From UHGV virus genome UHGV-0101776: DNA of 11,244 bases; one strand, written 5' to 3'. This DNA comes from a virus. Of the stretch, positions 57 through 7,983 are shown in pieces. The stretch's first letter is position 1, and every line of letters begins with the position of its first letter. A program made the position numbers and the translations under genes. Under the pieces are notes generated by a model that saw only the letters and a list, made by a program, of their open reading frames with translations, searched no databases and was not told the DNA's origin.

Positions 57-96
57 AAAAAGGCCTGCGATTACCAGCAGGCCTTTATCTTTTTTT
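57..96. terminator. Bidirectional rho-independent terminator at the 3' end of the HNH gene
   Basis: 8-bp stem aggcctgc/gcaggcct (61-84) with an 8-nt loop. It is flanked by an A-run (57-60, a T-run on the minus strand) and by ttatcttttttt (85-96) on the plus strand. The hairpin sits immediately after the minus-strand stop at 85-87. Confidence 0.55.
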
Positions 97-696
97 AACA
101 CGCTTTCGAGTCCTTTTAGATTTTTCCTTAAGATATTCCGCAAGTTTATCCTCATCATTATTAAATTGAGATAAAAGCTCATGCTCGCAATTAAGTGCTT
201 TACTCGCATAAGTTCCATATAGTTTCTTTCTTGCTAGTGCTGCTATGAATGCTGCATCTTCTTTGCTATCGAAATACCCTAACGATATTGTCTTATTTTT
301 ATAACCAACATAAGACTTCCACCTGCCAGTTGTCTTATCCCAAGACACTCCAATCGCACCGGATGTGTTTAACCTATTCCCTACAATGTTTCTTGCATTC
401 TGCTCCTCTGTTGCCAGTCTTAGATTTGAAATCCTATTGTCAAGTCTGTTCCCATTTACATGATCAATAAACTTAGGAGGCCATTTTTTGTATACATAGA
501 ACCAAGCAAGTCTATGCGCATAATACAAAACATTATTTATGCTAATGCATATATAACCACCACTAACACCTCCAGCAATACTACCTTTTACTCTTACTAC
601 TGAATTTGTTTTTAGCCATTTAAATATTCCTGTTTCTGAGTCATATGATAATGTTGACAGAAGCTCATCGTGATCAATTAGTTTTTTTATTCGCAT
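85..696 (-). CDS. HNH homing endonuclease with AP2-type DNA-binding domain
   Basis: 203-aa ORF. HNH motif IDHVNGNRLDNRISNLRLATEEQNARN, followed by an AP2-like segment GVSWDKTTGRWKSYVGYKNKTISLGYFDSKEDAAFIAALARKKLYG. Visibly AT-rich compared with the adjacent helicase gene. No obvious SD before the ATG at 696. Confidence 0.8.
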   Translation of the reverse strand: MRIKKLIDHDELLSTLSYDSETGIFKWLKTNSVVRVKGSIAGGVSGGYICISINNVLYYAHRLAWFYVYKKWPPKFIDHVNGNRLDNRISNLRLATEEQNARNIVGNRLNTSGAIGVSWDKTTGRWKSYVGYKNKTISLGYFDSKEDAAFIAALARKKLYGTYASKALNCEHELLSQFNNDEDKLAEYLKEKSKRTRKRVKKR

Positions 697-778
697 AAAG
701 AATATACTTAATAATATATACAGTAAGAACCATTAGTAACGATAACCCTGCTATCAGCTCAGTGATGTAGATGGTCAT
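674..778 (-). CDS. Small hydrophobic peptide (34 aa), possibly translationally coupled to the helicase
   Basis: The ATG overlaps the helicase TGA stop (TGATG) and is preceded by a strong SD, AAAGGAGG, 7 nt upstream. Product MTIYITELIAGLSLLMVLTVYIIKYILYANKKTN has a single predicted TM helix. Overlaps the HNH start by 23 nt. Below the ORF-track size cutoff. Confidence 0.3.
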   Translation of the reverse strand: MTIYITELIAGLSLLMVLTVYIIKYILYANKKTN

Positions 779-2214
779 CAGAATCCTCCTTTCTTCTTGG
801 ATTGCGGTTCCTCGCGTTCACGGCGGCGCATTTCAGCGGACTGTTGGTCTGTGTCATAAATAGCGCCATTTGCCTGAATGCAATACACCGTGCCGGTATT
901 GCCATGACGATTGAGACGAAGGATTAGTTCGGTTTCACCAGGTGGAACACTGTCATCAAAAGCACCTTCACGATGGATCCCCACCCAATAATCGCAATCC
1001 TGTTCAATCTGCCCTGTATCTCGTGAGTCACTTGGTAATGGGCGTTTATTGGTTCTGCTTTCCAGTGCGCGGTTAAGCTGCGTCAGAAGCACAACAACGC
1101 AATCAAGCTCTTTGGCAAGGTTCTTCAGTCCTTTGGTGATCATGCCGTAAGCAAGGTCGTTGCGATCGGCCTTCTCAGCAGTCATTAGTGTCAGGTAATC
1201 GACCAGAATCATGCCAACACATCCTTTTTCTCGCTTGATTCGACGACTTTCGCTGACGATTTGAGCCAGAGATAATCCCGGCGTGTCGTCGATGTAAAGC
1301 AGGTCGATTTCACTCAAGCGATTGGCTGTTTCGATCGCCCTGTTGAAGTCACCATCGTAATCACCCTGATAGCCGTCATCAGCGTCATTTGTCGCCGGAA
1401 GGTAAAAAATATTCGGGTTAACACCTGACTTCTGTCCTACCAGTTTTTCCAGTATCTGGTCACCGGGCATTTCAAGGCTGAACATCAGAGCGGGCTTTTT
1501 CTCATGCACTGCGCAGTTGATTGCCATCTGGCTGTATAGCGTCGTTTTCCCCATCTTAGGGCGAGCGCCAATGACAAACAGAGAGCCTTTCACCAGACCT
1601 TTCGGTGACAGCATCCTGTCCAGCGATGGGATCCCTGTGCTCATTCCTCGTTGTTCGCCTGACGGGTCAAATCGCTTCTCAAGGTCGCTAACCCAGTCTT
1701 CCATGACCTCACCAAATGAGCGAAGGCCGCGACGCGATCCGGTTTTTGCATGGTCTGTCAGTTGCGTAAAAATCGCCTGAATAGCTTCGTACTTCTGCGT
1801 CGCAGTCATTCCGTTGCGGGAATAGAGCAATTCCGTCGCTTCAGTCATGCGGTTGATGGCGTAGCGTTCCATTGCGGTTTCACGAACCTGCATTGCATAG
1901 GCAACGATGTTTGCTGCGCTTGGCGTGTTCTTTGCGATCTCAGCGATATAAGCAAAACCGCCAACAGACGCCGTTAACGATTTACGCTCCAGTTCATCGA
2001 AAAGCGTCAGGCCATCTACTGGCTTTTGCTCCCGGTGCATTCTGGTTATTTCTTCGAAAAGGATTTTGTGTGGTCGGCTGTAAAATGAATCAGGCTTCAG
2101 CATCGCCAGAACTTTCTGGACGCGCTCACTGCTGTCATCATCCAGAAGCAATCCACCAATCACCGCCTGCTCTGCCTCGATGCTATGGGGCGGCGCATAA
2201 AAATTATCGGTCAT
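778..2214 (-). CDS. DnaB-family replicative DNA helicase (phage P22 gene 12-type)
   Basis: Walker A GARPKMGKTTL, Walker B-like ILVDYLTLM and the DnaB-like LLTQLNR motif. The ATG at 2214 overlaps the upstream initiator stop (ATGACCGATAA) with GAGG upstream. The ORF track's longer form starts at a GTG at 2229; the ATG is preferred. Confidence 0.88.
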   Translation of the reverse strand: MTDNFYAPPHSIEAEQAVIGGLLLDDDSSERVQKVLAMLKPDSFYSRPHKILFEEITRMHREQKPVDGLTLFDELERKSLTASVGGFAYIAEIAKNTPSAANIVAYAMQVRETAMERYAINRMTEATELLYSRNGMTATQKYEAIQAIFTQLTDHAKTGSRRGLRSFGEVMEDWVSDLEKRFDPSGEQRGMSTGIPSLDRMLSPKGLVKGSLFVIGARPKMGKTTLYSQMAINCAVHEKKPALMFSLEMPGDQILEKLVGQKSGVNPNIFYLPATNDADDGYQGDYDGDFNRAIETANRLSEIDLLYIDDTPGLSLAQIVSESRRIKREKGCVGMILVDYLTLMTAEKADRNDLAYGMITKGLKNLAKELDCVVVLLTQLNRALESRTNKRPLPSDSRDTGQIEQDCDYWVGIHREGAFDDSVPPGETELILRLNRHGNTGTVYCIQANGAIYDTDQQSAEMRRREREEPQSKKKGGF

Positions 2215-3094
2215 CGTGTTCACCCTCACGAACTTTCAGGTAGGTATTATCGTTAAGCAGGAAATCAAATCCCTTTTTGTGCCAGACGGTTCCGCGTTGA
2301 TGGTTTGGGCGCTCTTCGAACATCCATCGGCAATTTTCGCCAACGTAGCTCAAATAATTTCTCCAGTCCTGCATCGTGAACCCATGCCCGTCAAGTTGGC
2401 GTGTTATTACTCCGGCTTTGCGCCAGAACGTTCGGATCTGGTTTTTACGCTTGTCATTCAGTGCGCGGATTCTTGGCGCTTCAGGAAGGATTTCGTGGTA
2501 AGCATCGACAACATCCTGACAGCTGACGGAAGGTTTTTTCTTGTCAGACTTTTTGTCTGCTGTGGCACTCTCTAATACGTCAGTATTAGAGATATTATTT
2601 ATATTATTGTTTATGGACAACCGTTGGACAACCGTTGGACAATCTCCGCTGAGAGCCGCGCCATTACTGGTGTTTGCGTTGGACAACCGTTGGACAACCG
2701 TTGGACAATTTTTTGCCTGAAAATCGTCATATTTAACGATTGTAAACAGGCTAAATTTCTTCCCCATCGAGCAAATATTAAGCATCCCTTTCGACTCAAA
2801 AGTCCGTAATAAGCTCCGAACTTTGTTGTCGGGGATGAATGTTTCTCTGACCAGCGACGGGCGTCCAGTTATCATCTGACCGCGATCAACAGTTATCGGC
2901 CCGATATCCGTATTGACGACAGTAGATTCGTGATTAGCCTTGAGGATTAAGTGAAGCCAAAGATGTACTGCCTGAGAGTCCTTATAGAGCCTGCTGTCCA
3001 TAAACTGGCGGTGTATAGAGACATACCCCATACTGGATGCCTCCTGATGTTGTACAGGGTTATGCCTGTAATCAGCTAACTTAACGACGCCCAT
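2204..3094 (-). CDS. Phage replication initiator (lambda O-like role), origin embedded in the gene
   Basis: 296-aa ORF directly upstream of, and overlapping, the helicase gene. Strong SD AGGAG 6 nt before the ATG at 3094. Iteron repeats lie inside the central part of the gene (translated as the repeated CPTVVQRLS), the same arrangement as lambda O/ori. Conserved-looking C-terminal domain (TFWRKAG...GTVWHKKGFDFLLNDNTYLKV). Confidence 0.75.
   Translation of the reverse strand: MGVVKLADYRHNPVQHQEASSMGYVSIHRQFMDSRLYKDSQAVHLWLHLILKANHESTVVNTDIGPITVDRGQMITGRPSLVRETFIPDNKVRSLLRTFESKGMLNICSMGKKFSLFTIVKYDDFQAKNCPTVVQRLSNANTSNGAALSGDCPTVVQRLSINNNINNISNTDVLESATADKKSDKKKPSVSCQDVVDAYHEILPEAPRIRALNDKRKNQIRTFWRKAGVITRQLDGHGFTMQDWRNYLSYVGENCRWMFEERPNHQRGTVWHKKGFDFLLNDNTYLKVREGEHDDR
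2585..2708. repeat. Replication-origin iterons plus adjacent AT-rich region
   Basis: Six copies of GGACAA at 11-bp spacing (unit GGACAACCGTT) in two clusters of three, 2615-2642 and 2681-2708. The clusters are 66 bp apart (6 x 11), so all copies are in helical phase. An AT-rich stretch at 2585-2614 flanks them on the side downstream in gene orientation. Confidence 0.75.
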
Positions 3095-4761: not shown

Positions 4762-4884
4762 CTTCAAGTACGCGACAAGCCCCGTCCTTCAGGGCGTGGA
4801 GGATGTCAAAATAACTTTAAATAACACACCACCAACATTTAACACATTGAATTAAAAAACCTACAATATTTGATGAGAGGCGTT

Positions 4885-5205
4885 ATGGAACCGGTCAAAA
4901 TTAAACCATCTGTGGATTATATTGAAACCTATGCGGACTTCGCTAGTTTTGCTCCACTACCGGGAGCGGAAAAAAATCTCATTTGTATACATTTTATCGC
5001 AAACAAGTCAATACCTGCGGTACTATCCCAAAATGATATACCAGATCAACCAGGTAGAGCGAATATGCAGATAGGCTCTGTAAATGAACTCAATCAGCAA
5101 TGCACTGTGATAATGCCAATGGCACAACTAAAGGCTCTTCAAGAGAATATAGTTCTTCTTTTCGAACAATTAGAGGCACAAAACTCTAATGGAGCGAAGT
5201 CGTAA
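4885..5205 (+). CDS. Hypothetical protein A of a two-gene moron in the rexA/rexB-equivalent slot
   Basis: ORF-track ORF 4870..5205. Preferred start is the ATG at 4885, with GAGG 5 nt upstream (alternative ATG at 4873). 107 aa with no recognisable motif. AT-rich. The stop overlaps the next start (TAATG). Confidence 0.5.
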   Translation: MEPVKIKPSVDYIETYADFASFAPLPGAEKNLICIHFIANKSIPAVLSQNDIPDQPGRANMQIGSVNELNQQCTVIMPMAQLKALQENIVLLFEQLEAQNSNGAKS

Positions 5206-5888
5206 TGCAACAACCGGAAGAAGTAGGTGATTTAACTATTACTTACAAAACATCAAGTATTGTTAAACCACTGCAAGTTTCCCTGAATAACGTTAATACT
5301 CGCGATTTCATGATGTTCATGGAAACAGCAAAAGGTAATCTGTTTTCTACGCCTATTTCCTCTTATTCACCAAAAAACATGGTGGATGATGCGACCAATT
5401 CCCAGCTAACTGCTACAATCGTAGATAAAGGAGGGGTTGCCGATTGTAAAGGACAATCTAATGTTATCCCACCGTACGAGGAAACTCCTATACAGGGAAC
5501 CGCAATGTCCGATTTGAGCAGAAACGAAATACAGGCACTTCTGAAGGCAAATAAAGCTGAAGTGGATGCAGTGGCCTCAAAAATGCAGGCTGATATGGCC
5601 AAATGGCGTGAACTAATGGCTTCAGATATAAAGGAGATGAAGCATTTAGTTGTTACTCAGCACGAACAAATCAACAGTCGTCTGGACATACAATCGAGTA
5701 GAATTGAGAGTGCCCTTGACTCCCAATCAAAAAAGATCGATGCAGCTCTTTCTGTTCAAGAGGCAAAGTTAGAAGGTAAGCTTAGTGATGTTAAGCTTGA
5801 TATAATCAAATGGGCCCTTGGCTTGCCAGCATTAGCATTTACTGTATATAAAATCTACGGATTGCTCTCTGGAGTCTCAACCCCCTAA
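5205..5888 (+). CDS. Hypothetical membrane-anchored coiled-coil protein B of the two-gene moron
   Basis: 227 aa. N-terminal globular part, a central heptad-like coiled-coil region (about residues 110-200) and a C-terminal hydrophobic helix IIKWALGLPALAFTVYKIYGLLSGV. Start overlaps the stop of protein A. Followed by an intrinsic terminator. Confidence 0.6.
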   Translation: MQQPEEVGDLTITYKTSSIVKPLQVSLNNVNTRDFMMFMETAKGNLFSTPISSYSPKNMVDDATNSQLTATIVDKGGVADCKGQSNVIPPYEETPIQGTAMSDLSRNEIQALLKANKAEVDAVASKMQADMAKWRELMASDIKEMKHLVVTQHEQINSRLDIQSSRIESALDSQSKKIDAALSVQEAKLEGKLSDVKLDIIKWALGLPALAFTVYKIYGLLSGVSTP

Positions 5889-7782: not shown

Positions 7783-7842
7783 ATGCATACCAATAACGCT
7801 TCATTCGAGGCGTTTTCGTTATGTATAAATAAGGAGCACACC

Positions 7843-7983
7843 ATGCAATATGCCATTGCAGGGTGGCCTGTTGCTGGCTGCCCTTCCGAATCTTTACTTG
7901 AACGAATCACACGTAAATTACGTGATGGATGGAAACGCCTTATCGACATACTTAATCAGCCAGGAGTTCCCAAAAATGGATAA
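7843..7983 (+). CDS. cIII: CIII (inhibitor of FtsH-mediated CII degradation)
   Basis: 46 aa, MQYAIAGWPVAGCPSESLLERITRKLRDGWKRLIDILNQPGVPKNG. Essentially identical to my recollection of lambda CIII over this length, but lacking the last 8 residues. AAGGAG SD 6 nt upstream. The ORF-track ORF 7783..7983 includes a spurious N-terminal extension. Confidence 0.85.
   Translation: MQYAIAGWPVAGCPSESLLERITRKLRDGWKRLIDILNQPGVPKNG

Follow-up and report, generated by a model that had tools for sequence, protein, structure and literature searches.

Fusion of an HNH to an AP2 domain is an established architecture among homing endonucleases (Magnani et al. 2004, as cited in PMC10448857), and in other phages genes of this kind are located at genetic-exchange boundaries (PMC10448857). 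Lambdoid phages have a boundary of their own at ninA/tR2: the stretch is annotated as gene 45 (NinA-like), 'terminator tR2', and 'bsq6 boundary sequence' in the record of phage Sf6, and as ninA or Orf26 in P22 and phage 21. Here, we analyse the virus genome UHGV-0101776 (11,244 nt; 'the window' below means this whole stretch), the early region of a mosaic lambdoid prophage in which the genes relevant to our subject are all on the minus strand, and focus on an AT-rich gene for an HNH–AP2 protein that follows the replicative helicase gene. We consider it probable, at roughly 0.7, that positions 85–746 constitute a minimal free-standing HNH–AP2 homing-endonuclease cassette lodged in the non-essential ninA, exactly at the 5′ base of the tR2 hairpin.

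The locus itself is not new. Positions 54–2300 of the window are 98.6% identical to genes 54–57 of phage HK022 (AF069308), and the insert alone is 99.1% identical; P, a 34-aa open reading frame (ORF; gene 56), a 203-aa ORF, and tR2 occur in the same layout. The differences are that both small HK022 genes (56 and 57) are entered as 'hypothetical protein' in GenBank and that gene 58 is replaced in the window by an IS200C-type end (1–53). RefSeq and several Shiga toxin (Stx) phage records already name the gene as HNH or homing endonuclease. A literature search, for which the original HK022/HK97 genome paper was beyond reach, returned no paper on the insertion of this cassette in ninA/tR2 or on its activity.

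Among described HNH–AP2 homing endonucleases, IPA-HNH of phage ICP1 offers a close parallel: both proteins have an N-terminal HNH and a C-terminal AP2 domain, and both genes are free-standing, AT-rich, and situated at an exchange boundary. They differ in that IPA-HNH is too divergent for the HNH_3 profile (PMC10448857), whereas the window protein has a canonical HNH_3 domain, and in that the window protein belongs to a temperate lambdoid phage and has an additional Lys/Arg-rich C-terminal helix. This predicted helix (KEKSKRTRKRVKKR; residues ~165–203, window 85–200) is absent from all twenty aligned homologues.

The 203-aa protein matches the whole 46-position profile of Pfam HNH_3 (PF13392) with 57.8 bits (cut-off 24.8) and, at its C-terminal end, Pfam AP2 (PF00847) with E = 1e-7 and 32.6 bits, which is 0.7 bits below the gathering cut-off of 33.3; it also matches PHROG 99 ('HNH endonuclease') with E = 3e-72, and a sequence search of the PDB returns the AP2 domain of WRI1 (E = 1.5e-3). 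By these comparisons, the protein is classed as a member of the HNH_3 family with the HNH–AP2 architecture. All 23 family-invariant residues are kept in an alignment with the twenty homologues; among the positions invariant across all 21 sequences are D78–H79, N87, N91, N100, and N103, which supply the catalytic His and the metal-binding or structural Asn residues of the beta-beta-alpha-metal motif. The AlphaFold model has a predicted local distance difference test (pLDDT) value of 86, and its top Foldseek matches in the PDB are the AP2 domains of TEM1 and WRI1, with weak E-values (~1.5e-2). Third in the ranking is I-HmuI (1U3E), the HNH nicking endonuclease of Bacillus phage SPO1 (probability 1.00, weak E-value of 1.6e-2, template modelling [TM] score 0.34–0.39). 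The N-terminal half of the model aligns with I-HmuI over 109 columns with the His/Asn motif conserved, but identity is only 19%, I-HmuI is intron-encoded, and its DNA-binding modules are other than AP2.

A preliminary description, made from the letters alone, had called this gene an HNH/AP2-type endonuclease gene with a guanine-plus-cytosine (GC) content well below that of the helicase gene, and both statements hold. The insert has 33.8% GC compared with 50.6% for the helicase gene (25% compared with 53% at third codon positions), and it is the lowest-GC 662-nt stretch of the whole window, the second lowest having 37.5%.

Comparison with relatives lacking the gene, which the same description had suggested as a check, delimits a precise insert of 662 nt (Table 1). 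At the same site the insert is absent from Sf6, lambda, P22, phage 21, an Stx1 phage, and SF11, and in many relatives (including Sf6, HK629, HK75, mEp235, and Stx phages) the flanks are matched while ~665 nt are missing. The empty site, ATGACCATCTACAT.ACTGAGCTAATAAC-AGG-CCTGCTGGTAATCGCAGGCCTTTTTATTTGGGGG, is a 27-codon ninA with the tR2 hairpin inside it; in the window, the initial 29 nt of ninA and an AGG come first, then the 662 nt, and finally an AGG with the hairpin. The empty junction accordingly reads ..TAAC AGG CCTGC, and the filled one ..TAGC AGG GTTATC ... GATAA AGG CCTGC. Put differently, the flanks 750–778 and 54–84 are the two halves of the conserved 83-bp lambdoid boundary element (bsq6 in Sf6), which in the window is split by the 662 nt, with ninA turned into a 34-aa chimeric ORF. 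The tR2 sequence is identical to that annotated in Sf6, which has no insert, and the TAA stop of the HNH gene (85–87), the final triplet of the insert, abuts the tR2 stem.

Table 1. Features of the cassette and its surroundings in the window.
Feature	Position	Strand	Basis
tR2 rho-independent terminator (hairpin 59–86, coding-strand T-run 54–61); downstream homology flank	54–86	−	
Junction microhomology AGG (CCT on +), 3 nt	82–84, second copy 747–749	−	Filled versus empty sites
AT-rich insert, 662 nt (50-nt leader plus HNH–AP2 coding sequence with stop)	85–746	−	Absent from relatives at the same site
HNH_3 plus AP2 endonuclease coding sequence, 203 aa	85–696	−	Pfam and PHROG matches
AP2 domain	~214–357	−	Within coding sequence 85–696
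HNH_3 domain	~391–525	−	Within coding sequence 85–696
Chimeric ninA′ ORF, 34 aa (ninA codons 1–10 plus 24 insert-read codons)	674–778	−	PHROG 5907, Sf6/P22 alignment
Insert leader, 50 nt, AT-rich, no Shine–Dalgarno sequence, no promoter-like site, 100% conserved among copies	697–746	−	
5′ part of ninA, 29 nt conserved; upstream homology flank	750–778	−	Homology between contexts starts at ninA ATG
DnaB-like replicative helicase, HK022 gene P type	778–2229	−	Pfam DnaB and DnaB_C; 98.6% identity to HK022
Shine–Dalgarno sequence AAAGGAGG of ninA′, within 3′ end of helicase gene	785–792	−	
O-like initiator	2204–3094	−	ORF

The fetched copies that are free of insertion sequences (IS) on the ninA′ side all have the same junctions, in agreement with seven empty sites; this check covered 30 further IMG/VR copies and the annotated examples, and the exceptions are three kinds of IS-interrupted copy. 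A single A-to-G difference at 751, 2 nt before the junction AGG, separates the two states: G in every filled copy whose junction was retrieved, A in all seven empty sites. Judged by these comparisons, the HNH gene is an insertion relative to close relatives and not an ancestral, syntenic gene. Transposon-like ends were sought as well: the only candidates, the 3-nt AGG repeat and a 5-nt inverted match (TTATC/GATAA) read by eye, are not convincing.

The cassette (665-nt query) occurs at 98–100% identity in 126 of 5426 complete Escherichia coli genomes, at 138 places, a count that takes the best place per record and is inflated by IS-split copies. It is also present in ~19 phage records, namely HK022 and several Stx1 and Stx2 phages, some of which carry the annotation 'homing endonuclease'. 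The intact 84-bp ninA/tR2 site is much more common: at least 1882 of the 5426 genomes have it, as do 373 of 395 matching phage records, so that ~5% of the sites in E. coli are filled. A scan of the GTDB species representatives yielded one E. coli contig and two AP2-only matches, with no close relatives outside E. coli, and the nearest proteins beyond the 98–100% cluster are less than 50% identical, except for one chimera at 62%. This gap to the next relatives fits a young, horizontally spreading element.

For 30 loci whose flanks are intact, the 300 nt to either side were clustered, which gave six upstream and eight downstream contexts. Upstream of the cassette are the HK022-type P gene, a P22-type helicase gene, a toprim primase-helicase gene, lambda ren, an ORF B62-type gene, or a module of a DnaC loader and a winged helix-turn-helix gene. 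Homology between contexts extends exactly from the ninA ATG to ~12 nt past the tR2 T-run. There are nine cassette haplotypes, and the exact 662-nt haplotype of the window recurs in four of the upstream contexts and in at least three of the downstream ones, i.e. the element is incongruent with its flanks. On this evidence, the cassette is tied to ninA/tR2 and not to the helicase gene. The preliminary description had placed the insertion next to an essential replication gene and a possible target site in the helicase region. The insertion is confirmed and it does follow the helicase gene in the window, but the site is ninA/tR2 and the helicase an incidental neighbour. The idea of a helicase target or associate fails because the cassette follows six different upstream modules, one of them without any helicase; as ninA/tR2 is all that the contexts share, it is there that one would expect any target site.

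The helicase/ninA junction also hosts more than one kind of insertion: Stx1 and Stx2 phages have a different extra ORF of 89 aa, B62 (1557–1826 of locus L004), which comes after the helicase stop and before the ninA ATG and forms one of the upstream contexts of the HNH gene.

The same distribution can be explained without any nuclease-driven homing, if the cassette is an inactive or barely expressed relic carried along by homologous module exchange at ninA/tR2. Even where it is empty, and despite unrelated flanks, the boundary is near-identical in lambda, P22, Sf6, phage 21, and Stx phages; only ~5% of the sites are filled; and decaying copies exist, some split by frameshifts and others disrupted by IS. 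Against such passive carriage, the ORF is intact in nine of nine full-length, non-chimeric copies translated, the catalytic motif is intact, and the presence of one identical haplotype between different modules would require crossovers within ~30 nt on one side and ~45 nt on the other, which break-stimulated repair would achieve more easily. Moreover, six of the 12 polymorphic sites in the coding sequence are synonymous and six non-synonymous, which in this small sample is an over-representation of synonymous changes compared with the neutral expectation. Together, the intact ORFs and the weak synonymous excess may be said to favour, mildly, an active gene. We regard a purely passive passenger as unlikely, while recognising it as the main rival.

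Some of the atypical copies merit description in their own right. In different prophages, three different elements, an IS2-like element (IS3 family), ISEc8 (IS66 family), and IS1203/IS629, have independently entered a 50-nt stretch that lies after the start of ninA′ and before the HNH ATG (L007 3193–3194, L008 3194–3195, and L009 3172–3173, corresponding to window ~731–747), and the ISEc8 and IS1203 junctions recur in the IMG/VR contigs L044, L040, and L043. The cluster reflects either an AT-rich hotspot for IS or selection to disconnect the nuclease gene from expression upstream of it. A further locus (L011 5918–6516, protein P0004) has a chimeric HNH–AP2 gene: ninA′, the leader, and the first ~60 codons are as in the cassette, whereas a different, GC-richer HNH–AP2 gene follows after the conserved HRLAWF motif and runs into rusA, tR2 and the intervening nin genes being missing. 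Neither phages nor complete E. coli genomes gave a match for the donor of this 3′ half.

The position of the insertion within ninA is also the reason for the odd arrangement of start codons. The preliminary description had noted that the HNH ATG lacks a Shine–Dalgarno sequence and lies inside a 34-aa hydrophobic ORF that has a strong one and overlaps the helicase stop; the missing and the strong Shine–Dalgarno sequence, the nested start, and the overlap are all confirmed. The ORF, which we call ninA′, begins 7 nt after AAAGGAGG and shares one base with the helicase TGA (TGATG). PHROG 5907 matches only residues 1–12 of its product; the ninA homology is confined to the first ten codons (29 nt), with few substitutions relative to P22, Sf6, and phage 21, and the 17 C-terminal codons of ninA are lost from the frame in the filled site. 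The HNH ATG is in the +1 frame within ninA′, whose TGA follows 20 nt past it, giving an overlap of 23 nt. The 25 nt that precede the HNH ATG (GTATATATTATTAAGTATATTCTTT) are AT-rich and contain no Shine–Dalgarno-like purine run.

Start/stop overlaps of the ATGA type are the rule in nin regions (PMC8022706). Shine–Dalgarno-like GGAG or GGGG motifs precede ninA′ in the five other upstream contexts too, hence in six contexts in all, and both the Shine–Dalgarno sequence and the stop/start overlap of the 34-aa ORF are ancestral ninA features. The layout described earlier as an 'unusual translational arrangement' is thus present but has a simple origin, namely a ninA truncated by an insertion, its ribosome-binding sequence and overlap being standard in the nin region. 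RNA structure does not mark the HNH start: the fold of 640–800 is no more stable than those of shuffled sequences (z = +0.8), a result that speaks against a hairpin sequestering the start, as in T4 mobE or I-TevI. The 23-nt overlap contains a run of seven A residues (682–688, minus strand), at which slippage is conceivable. A NinA′–HNH fusion by frameshift at this run was considered and set aside: the HNH frame is +1, and a stop blocks the −1 frame.

Transcription signals were also compared with the preliminary description, which had portrayed the gene as a moron bracketed by terminators. The terminator scan found none between the helicase and HNH genes, and the promoter scan found no sigma-70-like promoter on the coding strand, the only promoter-like matches being antisense. 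Two hairpins are present, both downstream of the HNH stop: tR2 (57–86), which predates the insert, and one at 24–46, which belongs to the IS200C-type end. The bracketing by terminators therefore has to be abandoned.

A moron, in the sense used for HK97- and HK022-type phages, is a promoter–gene–terminator cassette. The window insert resembles one in being extra DNA of deviant composition placed between genes that are adjacent in relatives, but it has neither promoter nor terminator of its own; because the downstream terminator is the pre-existing tR2, which the cassette borrows, it is not a classical moron. The missing promoter and Shine–Dalgarno sequence are also features that passive carriage would accommodate.

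The terminator scan calls tR2 on both strands, and the fold of positions 1–110 gives z = −4.6. The A-rich codons of the Lys/Arg-rich helix place a T-run on the plus strand after the tR2 hairpin, so that the terminator looks bidirectional only in filled sites. On its other side, the IS200C-type end (with a perfect hairpin at 24–46) is inserted directly after the tR2 T-run (junction 53|54). The same end abuts the T-run of an unrelated terminator hairpin in E. coli CFT073 (L006 1495–1560), which suggests that IS200C-type elements prefer to insert 3′ of an intrinsic terminator. Matches to this short end are numerous within E. coli genomes, reaching 34 places in one genome for a query that contains it.

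If the cassette is a homing endonuclease gene, its life cycle may be outlined as follows. Without a promoter of its own, the gene would be transcribed from pR together with the replication genes, with transcription ending at tR2; it would therefore be silent as long as the prophage is repressed, with early expression once the phage infects or is induced. Ribosomes loading at the Shine–Dalgarno sequence and ATG of ninA, coupled to the stop of the upstream gene, would pass the HNH ATG and stop 20 nt later, where they could feed the HNH start by termination–reinitiation or, alternatively, throttle it. The enzyme would nick or cut intact ninA/tR2 in co-infecting or co-resident lambdoid genomes, and repair from the filled allele over the conserved flanks of ~30 and ~45 nt would copy the cassette in. 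Flanks of ~30–45 nt are usable by phage single-strand annealing recombinases.

Two other functions can be considered. The nuclease could be a domesticated weapon or accessory enzyme, kept mainly for the benefit of the phage (e.g. by excluding lambdoid competitors or satellites with an uninterrupted site), its spread being secondary. The position in the early operon is compatible with this, as are the presence in the window of competition genes such as SieB and anti-RecBCD and a weak PADLOC 'HEase' match, and homing-endonuclease-related domains have been co-opted in phage–satellite conflicts (PMC10448857). Yet the cassette is dispensable in ~95% of related phages and has no defence-system partner genes; mechanistically, moreover, this proposal overlaps with homing, as marker exclusion and homing would be two outcomes of the same cut. 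We rate it as improbable.

The other candidate is a packaging role. An HNH protein acts with terminase in HK022- and HK97-type phages, and the window protein could be such a terminase helper in DNA cleavage, like HK97 gp74. That protein is, however, of a different family (the window protein being HNH_3 plus AP2), the gene under study is in the early-right operon, distant from the terminase genes, and the same cassette is found in P22-like prophages with headful packaging and is absent from most relatives. This already disfavoured reading is hardly credible.

The interpretation of the cassette as a homing endonuclease gene must itself be weighed against several points. Cleavage, nicking, and homing by the window protein, its target site, and the translational coupling are all things that we infer from sequence. 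With no Shine–Dalgarno sequence at the HNH start and no significant RNA structure in the leader, expression is unproven. The Foldseek E-values are weak (~1.5e-2), and the 12 polymorphic sites indicate purifying selection only weakly. Salmonella phages, which do have the site, yielded no copy of the cassette. The ninA/tR2 stretch is itself a known mosaic 'boundary sequence' in the Sf6 annotation, and ordinary module shuffling alone could therefore place one cassette in many contexts; sequence data by themselves do not separate such passive carriage from homing.

What speaks for the homing endonuclease gene is the combination of an intact motif, precise insertion, sporadic spread, and decaying copies, which together are the signature of a free-standing gene of this class; the comparisons found a precise polymorphism, a conserved site, and flanks incongruent with the element. 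The earlier label of a free-standing homing endonuclease is accordingly upheld in its comparative part, i.e. precise presence or absence at a conserved site and horizontal spread, whereas nuclease activity is presumed from sequence. A more ambitious version, which we offer tentatively and consider possible rather than probable, is that the homing site is the universal lambdoid ninA/tR2 boundary, that breaks there drive reassortment of replication modules with nin and late modules, and that the cassette has evolved to hijack the ribosome-loading site of ninA to make a safely low level of nuclease, by reinitiation across the 23-nt overlap, from a start without a Shine–Dalgarno sequence.

Elsewhere in the window, two AT-rich ORFs (4870–5888, plus strand) are situated directly downstream of a CI-like repressor gene, in the position of lambda rexAB. 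The first, of 111 aa, has no family match; the second, of 227 aa, is matched by PHROG 14825 (function unknown) and, weakly, by a CCDC90-like coiled coil. The pair is a candidate prophage-expressed accessory or defence pair. The sole Rfam match in the window at the gathering threshold is Lambda_thermo, the cIII thermoregulator element (7830–7888, plus strand; 88.5 bits).

In some respects, the cassette is routine, having a known domain architecture and being already present in GenBank records. For readers of this locus, the small 'hydrophobic ORF' is best understood as a truncated ninA, the terminator as tR2, and the helicase as an incidental neighbour. If the enzyme is active on intact ninA/tR2, the locus would serve as a case study of a homing endonuclease in temperate lambdoid phages and Stx phages: a selfish nuclease exactly on a long-recognised mosaic junction, whose activity is linked with the exchange of modules in phages carrying Shiga toxin genes. 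Should the tentative proposal of homing at the boundary also be true, it would provide a mechanistic cause for one classic lambdoid mosaic junction.

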